Shown: in pieces, positions 14,985-39,612 of the stretch | Position numbering within the stretch: position 1 is the first letter of the stretch | Layout of the letters: every line of letters begins with the position of its first letter | Source of the DNA: a virus | Direction: 5' to 3' (one strand) | UHGV virus genome: UHGV-0200554 | Length of the DNA: 64,000 nt | The notes under the pieces: model-generated | What the model was told of the DNA's origin: nothing | What the model saw: only the letters and a program-made list of their open reading frames with translations | The model's database searches: none | Made by a program: the position numbers and the translations under genes

Positions 14985-17900
14985 GTTTATACCCTCTGCG
15001 TATAGTCGTTATGGGGAACCGAACCCAGTTGCAACAAGATACAAAAGCGGAGGCAGTATGGCACGAGACTATCGTGATGAAAAAGAGGTTGAAACTGTAG
15101 AGACTGTTTTAGAAAATACTAAAATTGTCCCTGTTCCACAACAAAATATCGGACTGACGGCTGCACAATATTTCGGTGTGCGATCAGCATTGTCCCAAGA
15201 AGATGGTGTGACAGTCGTTGCAACATATTTCCCATATTACAACCGCTACGGCAATCTATCTGGCTTTAAAAAGCGTGATTGGTCTAAGCCAAAAGAGCAG
15301 AAAGGGCACTGGTCTGTAGTAGGCATTGTTAAGGCCAACAGCCAGTTCTTCGGTCAGAAAATGGTTGGTGAAGGCTCAGACCATCGTAAAATCATTGTCT
15401 GCGAAGGTGAAGGCGATGTTATTGCTGCGTGGCAGACTGAATGGATGATGGTCAGGAAAATAGCTACAGACCCGTCATCAAATAAGAAAGCTAAAGCGTG
15501 GGCACAAAGCGTTCTTGACGGTATTAAAGCCGTGCAGGATGGTGGTTCTGCTAAAGGTTTTCCCACAATTAACGTGGTAGGGCTTAATTGTGGTTGTGCG
15601 AATGCCGTAGACGCTTTTGCCAACAACGAGAAGTTTATTCGTGGCTTTGATGAGATTGTCCTGGCCTTCGATAATGACGCTGCAAATGATGTTGAGAAGC
15701 TAAAACATGTCACCAAAGGTGTTGAAGCCACTCACAATGTTGCAGCTTTCCTGATGGCTGACAACGTTTTCCATGTGCAGTATCCGAGCGAGGTAAATGA
15801 TCCAGAGGGTTACAAAGATATCCGTGATTTGTTCCAGGCTAAAAAGTATGATCAAATTCACGATATGTTCAAAAACCCGATCAAATACGTGCCAGACGCT
15901 GTAGCAGGCCTGAATGATTTCTCAATTGAAGATTTACGTAAAAAATCCACCAATGGTGTTGACATTGGGGCAGAGTTCCCTAAACTCCAGAAAATGTTGA
16001 AAGGTTTGCATAAAGGCACACTGGTCATGTTGACTGGCCCTTCCGGCGGTGGTAAGACTACGGTAGCTAAGAAGATTGAGCACCAGATAGCTAAATACCT
16101 GATGGATCCTACGGTGGCTAAAGCTGATGACTACGACCCCGAAGACAGGTTGTGTATGATTCACCTGGAAGAGGACCCAGAAGAAGCCATCAACTCGCTG
16201 TATGCTAACCAGCTGGGGTATGATATCAAGAATTTCATGGAGGACCCAAGCAAGTATCTGACCGAGCAGGAACACTTTGAAATCCACAAAGCCTGGGTTG
16301 ATGCTGATAAAATCAGAGTATTCCGGCACTTCGGTTCAATACCTGTAAACGACCTGATCACCAAGCTGAAACAGATGGTGTGCTTGTATCATTGTCGTTA
16401 CATCGTACTGGATCATCTGTCAATGGTTATTTCTGGTTTGAATGTAAAAGATGAGCGTAAAGAGCTGGACCTTGCAATGACGCAGCTTGCAGCATTCTGT
16501 AAGCAATTCAATGTGTTCATTTTGGTGATTGCACACTTACGTCGTACAGAGATTATCCCACCGAAGGATAAAGAAGGTAGGGCTTTACCGTTCTGGTATC
16601 CTGTCCGTAAAGAAAACCTTCGTGGTTGTGTTTCTGCGGACACAGAGTTTTTAACCCCGCAGGGGTGGAAACGCATAGATAACTATGCAGAAGGGGATTT
16701 GGTTGCGCAGCACGATGAAAATGGCGTAATGACTTTCGTAACCCCGAAAGCCTACATCAATCTTCCTTGCGAAGAAATGTGGCATGTTTCCAACACTCAC
16801 GTTGTAGACATGTTGTTGAGCGATGAACATCGTGTTGTATATGTGAATGACAGAACGCCAGATGTTTTCCGTACGAAAACCATGTTGGAAGTTGTCTATG
16901 ACCACAACAACAAGCCTTCAGGTATGCGTGGGAAAATACCTGCTACGTTCCTCACAGGGTGCAATGGGACGCTGGGGTTGACTGATGACCAATTACGCCT
17001 ACAGGTTGCTGTAAATGCTGATGGGACAGTTCTTACTGAGTCAACAGGAAGAGTGGCTGTGAGAATCAAAAAAGATCGGAAAAAACAACGTCTCGAGATG
17101 CTGCTGGAGAAAACAAACACCACTTATAGGCGTCTTGATTTGCACGGGGTGCACGAAGGACGCACAGAGTACCAATTTAAAGCACCGTGTGGGTATAAAG
17201 GTGTGACTGGGGAATGGTTTAATCTCAAACAACACGAGTTGGAGATTATCTGTGATGAGGTTATGTATTGGGACGGAGATTCTGTGAACAAAAACAGGGT
17301 GTCCACCATTAACAAACTTGAAGCGGACTTCTTACAGTTTGCCTACAGCGCCTGTGGACATAGAACATCTTTATCCATGAAGGAGAACAACAGTGGCTTT
17401 GGCGGTAGTTACAACTGTAAACCTTTGTACGAGGTAAATGTTTGCAATACTAAGTACATGCATATACGCAAAGGTAGTAATAACAAACCCTCTATTGAAC
17501 GTGTACCTTCCCCAGATGGACGTAAGTATTGCTTTACGTTACCGTCGGGTATGTGGGTGGCGCGCCGCAATGGGCATATTTTTATCACAGGAAATTCGGG
17601 GAGTATGGAACAACTCAGTTGGGTTGTCATAGGGGTAGAAGCAGAAGAGATGCCTGACAGGTCCCGTGGGCGTGTCCGTTTAGTTAGCCTAAAAAACAGG
17701 CCAGCTAAAACCTTGGGTATCGCTGATGTGCTGATTATGAACCCTGAGACTGGTAAATTCTCCGATGCCAGTGACTGGGTGTGGGATAAAGAGACAGGTT
17801 TCTTCCTGAACAAAGATGGGGATATTGTCTGGAGGCCACAAGATATGTTCGACAATGAAGAACATGTTGTTGTGGAAACTCCTGAAGGTAAGGTTACCGC

Positions 17901-27938: not shown

Positions 27939-28400
27939 ATGATTATCGGTACTGTAAATGGGGATTTAATCTCTATCTTTAAAAGCGGGGCTGGTCACCT
28001 GATCCACGGTTGCAACTGCTTCCACACAATGGGTGCAGGCATAGCAAGGCAGATTGCCAAAGAGTTTCCTCAAGCGTTGGAGACTGATAGGATGACTGCT
28101 TACGGTGATCCAGACAAGTTGGGCACGCTCTCTTGTTGGGAGCATTTTGCCAAGAACAGGATTGTATACGGGATTAACATGTATACTCAATTCCGACCAG
28201 GGCCTAATGCTGATTACTCTTCAATCATGAATGGTTTTGAGCAAGTCAATGAGGTATTCGAAGGTATGTCGTTACCGTTCTACATCCCTAAGATTGGGTG
28301 CGGTATAGGAGGTCTTATGTGGGAGCATGTAGAGAATATCATCAACCTCACGACTCCTGATATAAAAGTGATCGTAGTGGAATACTGCAAAAAAGGTTGA
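27939..28400 (+). CDS. macro-domain (ADP-ribose binding/processing) protein
   Basis: GDLISIF...AGHLIHGCNCFHTMGAGIARQI pattern typical of macro domains; C-terminal IGCGIGG. Confidence 0.55.
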   Translation: MIIGTVNGDLISIFKSGAGHLIHGCNCFHTMGAGIARQIAKEFPQALETDRMTAYGDPDKLGTLSCWEHFAKNRIVYGINMYTQFRPGPNADYSSIMNGFEQVNEVFEGMSLPFYIPKIGCGIGGLMWEHVENIINLTTPDIKVIVVEYCKKG

Positions 28401-33428: not shown

Positions 33429-33830
33429 ATGAGCGCTTTTAACACTGATTTCGATTTCTCTGGTCTGGAAGAAGTTCGCGATCTTCGTAACTGCCGCCGC
33501 GAAAACGGTTTTTATAAATCTCTGGACCTGGTGGCACTGGACCACAAAATGGACCTGGAAGAAGTAGCAACGATTCGTTTCTACCAGTCACCGCGCGGTA
33601 ACACTGTTTACTGTGTAGTATGGGTACATGAAGCAGGGCACGAATTTTATGCCACTGCTGGCGGGAAAGCTGGTGGCTATGGTTACGATAAAGAGGAGGC
33701 CGCATTACGGGAAGCTATCGAGGCGATGGGTGTAAAAGCTGGCGATTATGCTCACCCTGAAAAATTTTTAATCCAGCTTGCTCGCTACTTCGGATATGAA
33801 AAAGCTAAAGTGATTGAAGCACACGCATAA
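33429..33830 (+). CDS. hypothetical protein
   Basis: ORF track; AAGGAG RBS; CGY-biased Arg codons. Confidence 0.55.
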   Translation: MSAFNTDFDFSGLEEVRDLRNCRRENGFYKSLDLVALDHKMDLEEVATIRFYQSPRGNTVYCVVWVHEAGHEFYATAGGKAGGYGYDKEEAALREAIEAMGVKAGDYAHPEKFLIQLARYFGYEKAKVIEAHA

Positions 33831-33842
33831 GCTGCCTTTTAG

Positions 33843-33863
33843 ATGGCCCCCTGGTGGGGCCAT
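33843..33863 (+). repeat. intergenic palindromic element (TTTTAGATGGCC...GGCCAT family)
   Basis: ATGGCCCC-CTGGT-GGGGCCAT hairpin preceded by GCCTTTTAG and followed by TGATAAAG. Confidence 0.5.
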
Positions 33864-33907
33864 TGATAAAGGTAACTTGGGGCAACAATAACCGAGAGAA
33901 AGAAAAT

Positions 33908-34895: not shown

Positions 34896-35171
34896 ATGGC
34901 TATCATCGAAAAAGTAAACGTTCCAGCCACTTATAATAAAGGTTATAACGGTTGGAAAAATTACAATCAGTGGAACGTTGCACTGTGGATCAATAACGAC
35001 GAAAGTTTATACTTCTTTGCCCTGGGCTTGATTAATGAGTGTGGCAATAAAGACGCGGCAGCTGATTTGATGGTTTACCGCTTGAAAGAAGAGGGGATCA
35101 CTCATACGCCTGATGGGGTGCCTTACAATAAAACTAACATCCGCGCCGCTATGGTCGGAATGCCGCACTGA
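34896..35171 (+). CDS. hypothetical protein
   Basis: ORF track; RBS GAGGAT. Confidence 0.5.
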   Translation: MAIIEKVNVPATYNKGYNGWKNYNQWNVALWINNDESLYFFALGLINECGNKDAAADLMVYRLKEEGITHTPDGVPYNKTNIRAAMVGMPH

Positions 35172-35849: not shown

Positions 35850-35872
35850 GTTATTTTTCGGTGGCCTGGGTA

Positions 35873-35901
35873 TTGACACCGGGCCATCTATAAAGTAACC
35901 T
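35873..35901 (+). promoter_or_regulatory. promoter-like element with -35 inside palindromic loop
   Basis: GGTGGCC-TGGGTATTGACACC-GGGCCATC; TTGACA 35873-35878. Confidence 0.35.
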
Positions 35902-36117: not shown

Positions 36118-36477
36118 ATGAAACGCATCAATAAGGCTATGGCTAACGCAATCCGTGCTTATGTAGTTGACAGCTTAAACTTTGACGACATGGAACACGA
36201 CAACGACGTTGAGGAACTGAAAGCACGCTTTGAAGCTGAGCATTTTGACGGCTATTATATCCGTCGCTTTAACGGCAACCGTGTAAAAGCAATGGCCGAC
36301 TGGTTAGCAGGACTGCCGAGCGGTGTAGACATTGACTTCTGTAATGATGACATTTTAAACCGCTTGCGTGAGTTCGGAATCATTGACGAAAAAACTAAAG
36401 AAGACACTAAAGATCGCTACATTGACGAATGGTTTGAACTGATGGCGCGGTTTTATGTGGAACTAGCATACAAATAA
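36118..36477 (+). CDS. hypothetical protein
   Basis: ORF track; AGAGGAAAACATCATG module. Confidence 0.55.
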   Translation: MKRINKAMANAIRAYVVDSLNFDDMEHDNDVEELKARFEAEHFDGYYIRRFNGNRVKAMADWLAGLPSGVDIDFCNDDILNRLREFGIIDEKTKEDTKDRYIDEWFELMARFYVELAYK

Positions 36478-36516
36478 AATAGCTTGCTTTTAGATGGCCT
36501 CGAAAAAAAAAAATAG

Positions 36517-36545
36517 TTGACACGGGGCCATCGATAAAGTAAACT
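36517..36545 (+). promoter_or_regulatory. promoter-like element with -35 inside TTTTAGATGGCC...GGCCATC palindrome
   Basis: GATGGCC-TCGAAAAAAAAAAATAGTTGACACG-GGGCCATC; TTGACA 36517-36522. Confidence 0.4.
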
Positions 36546-36583
36546 AACACACAGTAAGAAGTAACAACAAAGGAGAAAACATT

Positions 36584-36922
36584 ATGAACGCTAACATTGA
36601 ACTGATTGCACGTCGTGCCGCCCTGGTTGCAGCTATCGAACAATTGAACAATAAAATTGAAAACTTTGAAATTGATCCAGATGACTACGAAAACGACTAC
36701 GATGATTTACTAGACGAAGGCGGTGCGGTAGTGGTAGGCGGTTGCGAATTTCTCCCGTCTAGAATCCTCCGCGAACTGGATCCGATTGCTTATCGTTGCG
36801 GCCTGAATGATTATATAGACAACATTGATGTAAGCGATGACGCAAACTATTGTGATTTGTGTGACGATCTGGCTGACCTTGAGGCAGAACTAGGGGAAGT
36901 CGAGGAAGCGCTACGTAACTAA
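36584..36922 (+). CDS. highly acidic small protein (DNA-mimic candidate)
   Basis: ORF track; 112 aa very rich in Asp/Glu (DPDDYENDYDDLLDE..., DVSDDANYCDLCDDLADLEAELGEVEE). Confidence 0.55.
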   Translation: MNANIELIARRAALVAAIEQLNNKIENFEIDPDDYENDYDDLLDEGGAVVVGGCEFLPSRILRELDPIAYRCGLNDYIDNIDVSDDANYCDLCDDLADLEAELGEVEEALRN

Positions 36923-36933
36923 GTTGCCTTTTA

Positions 36934-36957
36934 GATGGCCTCCCTGGCGGGGCCATC
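36934..36957 (+). repeat. intergenic palindromic element (TTTTAGATGGCC...GGCCATC family)
   Basis: GATGGCC-TCCCTGGCGG-GGCCATC preceded by GCCTTTTA, followed by CATAAAG. Confidence 0.5.
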
Positions 36958-37001
36958 CATAAAGATAATTTAGTGTAACCACAATAAAAAGGAGTTACGC
37001 A

Positions 37002-37250
37002 ATGGCAAAATTAATTAACTTTGCAGCGGTGGACCTGGTAAAAGCTGATTGGTATTATAGCAATGGTCGCGCCGTTTGGTGGCGTGAAGGGGGTGCCGAG
37101 GGCAAAGTAAAAGCGCGTATGATTAAAGGTTACCATTTAGATCGCCCTGTAATTCGTATCAATGGGAAGCTGGTCGCTTTCATGCATATCAAAGCGGTTG
37201 ACGATATTGAAAAAATTTTGAACGTCAACTATTTTAAAATGTTAGGGTGA
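37002..37250 (+). CDS. hypothetical protein
   Basis: ORF track; AAGGAG RBS. Confidence 0.5.
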   Translation: MAKLINFAAVDLVKADWYYSNGRAVWWREGGAEGKVKARMIKGYHLDRPVIRINGKLVAFMHIKAVDDIEKILNVNYFKMLG

Positions 37251-39531: not shown

Positions 39532-39542
39532 GTTAGCTTTTA

Positions 39543-39569
39543 GATGGTCCACGATGCGAAAGTGGATCA
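39543..39569 (+). repeat. intergenic palindromic element (TTTTAGATGG...CATCAATAAAG family)
   Basis: ATGGTCCAC-GATGCGAAA-GTGGATCAT preceded by GCTTTTAG. Confidence 0.45.
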
Positions 39570-39612
39570 TCAATAAAGAAAACTCAACCACGAAGCAAGA
39601 AGGAGAAACATC

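Follow-up and report, generated by a model that had tools for sequence, protein, structure and literature searches.

Does the gene at positions 36584 to 36922 of a 64,000-nucleotide (nt) stretch of virus DNA (UHGV virus genome UHGV-0200554; the whole stretch is called the window here) encode a DNA mimic? The original prediction was that its highly acidic product is a candidate for such a mimic, comparable to Ocr and ArdA, and that it is expressed early from its own promoter. Judged by its sequence, the window is part of a divergent rV5-like (Vequintavirinae-like) myophage genome. It has about 83% DNA identity to Vequintavirus genomes, in the primase/helicase region only, and a megablast search gave no match for the locus in 50,697 phage records. 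The gene, of which there is one copy in the window, and its Shine-Dalgarno sequence are as follows.

36570..36575, + strand, Shine-Dalgarno sequence AAGGAG, 8 nt before the ATG, read from the sequence
36584..36922, + strand, coding sequence (CDS) of 112 amino acids plus stop, ATG to TAA; member of PHROG 9294 and orthologue of rV5 gp187/ORF192

The product has 17 Asp and 13 Glu residues against 1 Lys, 6 Arg, and no His (30 D+E and 7 K+R; 26.8% D+E), which gives the 112-residue protein a net charge of −23. Its computed pI, about 4.05, is at the calculator's lower limit. The negative charge is clustered, mainly in residues 31 to 50 (−9) and 81 to 110 (−12). These values bear out the original description of the product as rich in Asp and Glu with few basic residues. 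For comparison, we took the approximately 48 open reading frames (ORFs) that lie on the + strand in the 26- to 58.6-kb part of the window and have a Shine-Dalgarno sequence in front of them; among these, 36584..36922 is the most acidic per residue, at −0.205 versus a mean of −0.007 (standard deviation, 0.083).

The distribution of differences between relatives shows that the ORF is not an accident of the sequence. Compared with L008, its closest viral-contig relative and the reference for this calculation, there are 26 synonymous and 7 nonsynonymous codon differences, and dN/dS is 0.05. Because of this value and because there are hundreds of homologues, 36584..36922 is a real gene under purifying selection. 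A chance ORF, or a decaying gene without function, is suggested only by the small size and the missing annotation. Against it stand the low dN/dS, the 918 family clusters found at E ≤ 1e-10, the confident fold prediction, and the conserved ribosome-binding site and promoter. The conservation data already refute this explanation, and its probability is negligible.

The original prediction gave the gene its own promoter. The elements that bear on this claim lie in the intergenic sequences on both sides of the gene.

36484..36542, + strand, upstream intergenic cassette, a two-tier stem-loop by RNA folding, which recurs in the window
36503..36513, + strand, A11 tract, UP-element-like, upstream of the −35 hexamer, read from the sequence
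36517..36545, + strand, sigma70-type promoter-like site, with TTGACA at 36517-36522, a 17-nt spacer, and TAAACT at 36540-36545
36923..36969, + strand, downstream copy of the cassette by cassette alignment, a stem-loop GAUGGCCUC/GGGGCCAUC with a short loop, followed by ATAAAGATAAT

In a consensus scan, the putative sigma70 promoter of the gene had 10 of 12 consensus matches. Both hexamers are kept in L008 and in L009, another metagenomic phage, despite differing lengths of the loop and of the A tract, which is A7 in L008 and missing from L009. In rV5, an annotated sigma70 promoter, P192, lies directly upstream of the orthologue, gp187/ORF192. Thus, the claim of an own promoter holds at the level of consensus and conservation, and at that level only.

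The upstream cassette starts 7 nt past the stop codon of the preceding gene (36475-36477). Its outer stem is CUUUU/AAAG and its inner stem is GAUGGCCUCG/CGGGGCCAUC, and its 20-nt loop contains the A11 tract and the −35 hexamer. The folding energy of the RNA is −22.4 kcal/mol (z, −5.75), and none of 200 shuffled sequences was equally stable. The downstream copy, which is without the −35 hexamer, folds at −17.5 kcal/mol (z, −2.2) and stands between the gene and the next one, 37002..37250. The layout that is repeated consists of CTTTTAGATGGCC, a loop of 5 to 27 nt, GGGGCCATCNATAAAG, and then a −10-like (T/A)AAACT, and it forms a stable two-tier hairpin. In two of the copies, the TTGACA −35 hexamer is inside the loop, and therefore the stem-loop and the promoter overlap. 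Copies in the window are at ~33826-33875, 35860-35900, 36484-36545, 36923-36969, and 39533-39585. The cassettes bracket single small genes, and 36584..36922 is a one-gene unit between two copies. They recall the "promoter-early stem-loop" cassettes, which have been proposed as drivers of gene shuffling in T4-type phages.

The same gene order is found in rV5-like phages, which have homologues of the protein and of both of its neighbors (PHROGs 11100 and 11241). In rV5 itself, gp187/ORF192 is included in a long leftward unit of small genes (PMC3606486). Elsewhere, too, the family's genes are in arrays of small unannotated genes, and this is also true of the metagenomic relatives. In Providencia phage PS3 (Autographiviridae), a single gene separates the left end from a homologue consisting of the core alone, which follows an annotated host-type promoter, and in Stenotrophomonas phage Jojan60 a core-only homologue is about 4 kb from the terminal repeat. 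The sigma70-type promoter, the array of small genes of early type, and the position of core-only relatives near genome ends agree with the early setting that had been predicted, insofar as a setting can be read from sequence.

We clustered all ORFs within 3 kb of family genes at 68 viral-contig loci. No neighbor family occurred at more than 4 of the 68 loci, and a Pfam scan found no known anti-defense gene among the nearest neighbors; the Pfam matches of these neighbors were two to Kyano_Gp96, one to DUF7222, and one to a pentapeptide-repeat protein. Because there is no conserved neighbor or partner across the 68 loci, the protein very probably acts alone. MfpA and Qnr are DNA mimics with a pentapeptide-repeat fold. 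The pentapeptide-repeat protein mentioned above is a single case: it has 238 amino acids (L045:2569-3285; Pfam Pentapeptide, E 9e-43), and its gene is 81 nt downstream of the family gene L045:2096-2356.

The window's own array of small genes gave a few other domain matches. An ORF of 153 amino acids at 27939-28400 (+ strand), in the same array as 36584..36922, has a Macro domain (PF01661; E 1.5e-5, above the gathering score) and may be an ADP-ribose-binding or -hydrolyzing accessory protein. Among 42 small ORFs in the 26- to 58.6-kb array, there were also single matches to a ParE-like toxin domain (E 3.8e-11), to the T7 gene 1.1-like Phage_1_1 (E 3.4e-9), and, at 34896-35171, to DUF7249 (E 3.5e-14).

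How large is the family, and what is conserved in it? A word-indexed search found 39 homologues. When 1.84 billion cluster representatives were searched with a profile, 3180 of them matched at E ≤ 1e-3, of which 918 also passed E ≤ 1e-10 and 19 passed E ≤ 1e-30. The protein matched PHROG 9294 (E 2.9e-28, residues 16 to 109) and three smaller PHROGs, all of unknown function; the DPxAYRCGLxDY core is within the significant match to the PHROG 9294/rV5 gp187 family. No Pfam or NCBIfam model matched the protein, and 149 family members compared with Pfam gave only coiled-coil noise (HalX, Prefoldin_2, and DivIC). Literature searches gave no match to the motif, and neither did the supplements of two anti-defense catalogues or screens. 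The family, although catalogued (as PHROG 9294), is uncharacterized. Pfam has no entry for it, and no solved structure is related to its core.

Family members were found in phages of Escherichia, Vibrio, Proteus, Providencia, Stenotrophomonas, Pseudoalteromonas, Clavibacter, Microbacterium, and Gordonia, and also in many uncultured viral contigs of 14 to 165 kb, that is, myo-, podo-, and siphovirus-sized. Among 72,556 plasmids, tblastn gave one match. This is an rV5-type homologue at 15060-15254 of CP057073.1, a 137.6-kb "non-mobilizable plasmid" of E. coli from cattle feces, which is probably the genome of an rV5-like phage, assembled and then submitted under the label of a plasmid. In bacteria, the family was found in 2 of 185,579 species genomes, searched with the narrow pattern AYRCGLND only.

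Acidity is a property of the whole family. The median net charge is −27, and the pI is below 4.5 in 98% of 187 members; in the 68 viral-contig members, the median charge per residue is −0.19. The core-only members are strongly acidic too, at −0.18 and −0.22 per residue. We analyzed conservation in 149 representatives that were no more than 50% identical to one another. In these, the conserved columns are either hydrophobic or acidic; D or E makes up at least 70% of each of 17 columns, and a tendency toward basic residues is seen in columns 63 and 71 only. L62, D66, and A69 are near invariant and structural. R71 and C72 of the motif are replaceable, as the variants AYRTG, AYRVG, AYACG, and AYNCG show, and the 149 representatives have no invariant residue of catalytic type and no sign of a catalytic site. 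The combination of hydrophobic and acidic conservation with a replaceable R71 and C72 fits a function that is exerted via surface charge and not via an active site. It appears that selection maintains the fold and a polyanionic surface.

The fold was predicted with AlphaFold2 and the family alignment. The pLDDT of the model was 94.3, and 103 of 112 residues were at 90 or above. The order of the predicted elements is a helix (residues 3 to 26), an acidic helix (32 to 46), a beta-hairpin (49 to 51 and 54 to 56), two helices (58 to 65 and 67 to 79), and a last helix (87 to 111). The corresponding segments of the gene, and the cysteine codons that are discussed below, are as follows.

36590..36661, + strand, N-terminal amphipathic helix, residues 3-26, one strand of the antiparallel coiled coil predicted by AlphaFold2
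36662..36841, + strand, conserved core, residues 27-86, with acidic helix, beta-hairpin, and two helices; motif LDPIAYRCGLNDY
36842..36916, + strand, C-terminal acidic heptad helix, residues 87-111, paired with the N-terminal helix in the model
36743-36745, 36797-36799, 36851-36853, and 36860-36862, + strand, codons of C54, C72, C90, and C93, respectively

The N-terminal helix has heptad-spaced hydrophobic columns (7, 11, 14, 18, 21, 25, and 28) that are conserved among the 149 representatives. On the C-terminal helix, the seam consists of Y89, L92, L96, L99, L103, V106, and L110, and the other positions are mostly D or E; the acidic helix at residues 32 to 46 has the same pattern of faces. 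The structural neighbors of the model were generic helical hairpins only, with 55 to 62 aligned residues, and the core by itself had no structural neighbor. Thus, the fold is confidently predicted and, as modeled, is without a solved relative.

The core is an independent module. It is alone in Providencia phage PS3 (67 amino acids) and in Stenotrophomonas phage Jojan60 (83 amino acids), and two tandem cores without a coiled coil are found in P0115 (314 amino acids) and P0154 (211 amino acids). In long family members, the fusion partners are Kyano_Gp96 (PF23790) and DUF7222 (PF23864), both of them phage domains of unknown function. These two domains are found both fused and adjacent to family genes (P0081, P0187, L025:3086-3364, L057:1039-1341, and L014:5479-5946), and their association with the family is weak but repeated. 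A fusion to a beta-lactamase fragment was seen once and was set aside as probably a gene-call chimera.

Within the family, the window protein belongs to a clade separate from the rV5 clade. The rV5-type protein is 58% to 61% identical to it over residues 20 to 83, and the close relatives, at 79% to 97% identity, are metagenomic sequences only, on contigs of 129 to 141 kb. The window clade has three extra cysteines, C54, C90, and C93, that the rV5 clade is without. They are present in P0001 to P0020, in the sequences GGCEF and YCDLCD, and come in addition to the family-wide C72. The cysteines of the clade could bind a metal at a site specific to this clade, or they could staple the core to the C-terminal helix by a disulfide. 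We rejected a reading of the four cysteines as a zinc finger: it is not a feature of the family, in which C72 alone is widely conserved and is itself replaceable.

The explanation that we favor, although we put it at somewhat less than an even chance, is that the protein works by itself, early, as a polyanionic decoy directed at a basic surface with which a host protein binds nucleic acid. The gene would then be an early accessory unit that consists of one gene with its own promoter in a divergent rV5-like myophage. The product is a member of a large, uncharacterized, phage-restricted family defined by a core of about 55 residues (an acidic helix, a beta-hairpin, and two helices, with the motif DPxAYRCGLxDY). 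In the window subfamily, the core is predicted to be clamped by an antiparallel coiled coil made of the N-terminal helix and the very acidic C-terminal helix. Acting alone and early in infection, the protein may occupy the basic nucleic-acid-binding surface of its target and block it competitively, as DNA mimics do; candidate targets are a nuclease or restriction complex, a nucleoid protein, and RNA polymerase. The points that we count in favor are the Ocr-like composition, the family-wide acidity, the early-type setting, and the missing partner gene, and the presence of the family in phages of both Proteobacteria and Actinobacteria suggests a generic kind of target. On the other side, the well-conserved motif, which is not acidic, could just as well serve a specific contact between proteins that has nothing to do with mimicry. 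In addition, searches found no likeness to known mimics in sequence or fold and no recurrent anti-defense neighbor, rV5-like phages are extremely sensitive to type II and type III restriction, and the family is nearly absent from plasmids and bacteria.

A broader form of the decoy explanation is that the protein is the first recognized representative of a large, structurally new phage family of DNA-mimic or anti-defense decoys, which we think unlikely. If so, the compact acidic core, whether single, in tandem, or mounted on a coiled-coil stalk, would neutralize a widespread host nucleic-acid-binding protein, either of defense or of housekeeping. The scope of such a family would be more than 900 clusters at 50% identity, from phages of Proteobacteria, Actinobacteria, and uncultured hosts.

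A narrower form is that the protein inhibits type I restriction-modification (R-M) as a functional equivalent of Ocr and ArdA, with a dimer presenting its acidic helices to the DNA-binding groove of HsdM2S. The size and charge, which are as in Ocr, and the early setting read from the sequence would suit this role, and published plating data can be brought to bear on it, since by tblastn the Vequintaviruses of the BASEL collection carry the orthologue. The BASEL authors found the Vequintavirinae exceptionally susceptible to R-M, without effective protection (PMC8594841). In the raw EOP values, this susceptibility holds for the type II and type III systems (PMC8594841, S1 Data). On the type I systems EcoKI and EcoCFT_I, the rV5-like phages that carry the orthologue have EOPs of ~0.1 to 1 despite 10 to 17 EcoKI sites (PMC8594841, S1 and S5), so they are barely restricted there and are destroyed by EcoRV and EcoCFT_II. 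The Vequintavirus DrSchubert, whose orthologue is bas50_0107 and which has 10 EcoKI sites, has an EOP of 0.08 to 1.08 on EcoKI and of 0.6 to 1.08 on EcoCFT_I (4 sites), compared with ~6e-4 on EcoRI and values below detection on EcoRV and EcoCFT_II (PMC8594841). The small siphovirus AugustePiccard, with only 3 EcoKI sites, is restricted ~5000-fold by EcoKI (EOP, 1.9e-4) (PMC8594841). However, the authors ascribe the weak type I restriction to the rarity of sites (PMC8594841), and escape does not track the family. The EOPs on EcoKI are ~0.1 to 0.7 for phi92-like phages with 12 to 14 EcoKI sites and ~0.75 to 1.5 for a Felix O1-like phage with 9 (PMC8594841), and no Felix O1-like homologue was among the tblastn hits for the family. 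Because non-carriers also appear to escape, a correlation between type I escape and carriage of the family failed in the BASEL data, and the plating data are not specific to this gene. They are compatible with some type I inhibitor in rV5-like genomes, and they neither point to 36584..36922 nor exclude it. Taken together, Vequintavirinae, phi92-like phages, and a Felix O1-like phage have EOPs of ~0.1 to 1 on both type I systems with 9 to 17 EcoKI sites (PMC8594841), and large virulent coliphages may commonly carry unrecognized type I evasion functions. The window itself has 3 EcoKI sites against 7.6 expected, a depletion that is not significant. None of 42 other small ORFs of the window has an Ocr or ArdA domain in Pfam, which speaks for this protein, but the search for other candidates covered 64 kb of a genome of ~140 kb. 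The protein's lack of homology or fold similarity to Ocr and ArdA, and the occurrence of the family in phages of actinobacterial and marine hosts with no recurrent link to an anti-restriction gene, also count against a type I inhibitor, and we consider this role improbable.

The main rival of a decoy is a specific protein-protein modulator that mimics no nucleic acid, a possibility that we consider real, if rather doubtful. In this case, the core motif (DPxAYRCGLxDY), together with the beta-hairpin, would be the docking site for one particular protein of the host or of the phage, and the acidic coiled coil would serve only for solubility, dimerization, or spacing. This would explain why the most conserved stretch is largely non-acidic (L62, D66, P67, A69, Y70, G73, and L74), and it accords with a core that occurs alone, in tandem (P0115 and P0154), and in fusions, and with coiled-coil arms that are dispensable in many members. 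Yet the conserved residues are mostly hydrophobic or helix capping, with R71 and C72 replaceable, as in a structural core; moreover, the members reduced to the core have kept a strong negative charge (−0.18 and −0.22 per residue), and no partner gene co-occurs. We also considered a role inside the phage's own program, either as a small regulator of the early-to-late switch or as an acidic chaperone or buffer whose client is a basic protein of the phage, such as one for DNA binding or packaging or an internal protein. The helix/beta-hairpin/helix with coiled-coil arms loosely recalls prefoldin beta subunits, there were weak Prefoldin_2 matches in 16 of 149 members, and the fusions and adjacencies to Kyano_Gp96 and DUF7222 are loose links in the same direction. 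However, these Prefoldin and other Pfam matches are sub-threshold coiled-coil noise, and a prefoldin beta-like chaperone was rejected when the Prefoldin_2 gathering threshold was not reached. The family also spans unrelated phage types (myo-, podo-, and siphovirus-sized contigs). Because the genes are in early accessory arrays and not in structural or replication modules, and because no phage partner is conserved at the 68 loci, a helper of this kind is less likely, and we judge it improbable.

Overall, the protein is a reasonable, cheap-to-test candidate decoy, which would block a DNA-binding protein of the host. Among small early proteins of acidic composition, there are proven inhibitors of restriction, BREX, RecBCD, nucleoid proteins, and RNA polymerase, and each new mimic fold so far has given mechanistic insight and a research tool. 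The present family is unusually large and widespread, and its minimal core is only about 55 residues long. Because a large family is combined with a confident structure and a minimal core, hundreds of phage genes could be annotated from a single positive assay. Phages of the rV5 type are often considered for therapy and biocontrol against E. coli, and almost all of their approximately 100 small early genes are unannotated. If the protein were a mimic, it would be a new structural variant within a known functional class; if it were inert in defense assays, it would still be a new small domain worth a Pfam entry.

How, then, does the protein compare with known DNA mimics? In composition, it is close to T7 Ocr, which has 117 amino acids, 34 D+E, 6 K+R, and a net charge of −28, versus 112, 30, 7, and −23 for the window protein; the D+E contents are 29% and 27%, respectively. 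Both have an acidic C-terminal stretch and, as far as sequence tells, a gene behind a host-type promoter in an early-type setting. The core-only relative in phage PS3 is near the left genome end, roughly like gene 0.3 in T7. In contrast, there is no homology to Ocr: hhalign of the family alignment against T7 Ocr gave a probability of 0.3% over 10 aligned columns. Ocr (T7 gp0.3), which inhibits type I R-M and BREX through binding to the methyltransferase core, is an all-helical elongated dimer that imitates bent B-DNA, whereas the window protein is predicted to have a beta-hairpin-containing core and a terminal coiled coil. ArdA, the anti-restriction mimic encoded by conjugative plasmids and transposons, is likewise a hyperacidic small protein expressed early after DNA entry. 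Its three-domain chain is longer than the window protein, and it is found in the leading regions of conjugative elements, whereas the single plasmid match of the window family is to an rV5-like genome. ArdA-type mimics are common in plasmids and bacterial genomes, where the window family is nearly absent.

Neither the protein nor the 149 family members had a Pfam match to Ocr or ArdA. A sequence-profile search of the PDB gave coiled-coil proteins only, at E > 0.1, and did not find Ocr, ArdA, Arn, Gam, or any other solved mimic even at E ≤ 10. There was also no DNA mimic among the structural neighbors listed for the model. The predicted fold is thus unrelated to those of the known mimics, and the original comparison with Ocr and ArdA is supported by an acidity equal to that of Ocr and by the early-type setting, and it has no support from homology or fold. 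These sequence and model comparisons place the protein outside the Ocr and ArdA families, and its likeness to them is in composition and setting only. To our knowledge, however, the known DNA mimics have no common fold, so that the negative result removes an "Ocr/ArdA-like protein" and not a protein that acts as a mimic. The traits of the class as a whole, small size, high D+E content, and low pI, are present in the window protein and in its family. T4 Arn, T7 gp5.9, lambda Gam, and SPO1 Gp46 are small acidic early phage proteins that block host nucleic-acid-binding proteins, and by analogy the window protein would share their general logic, that of a small, acidic, early protein that stands alone.
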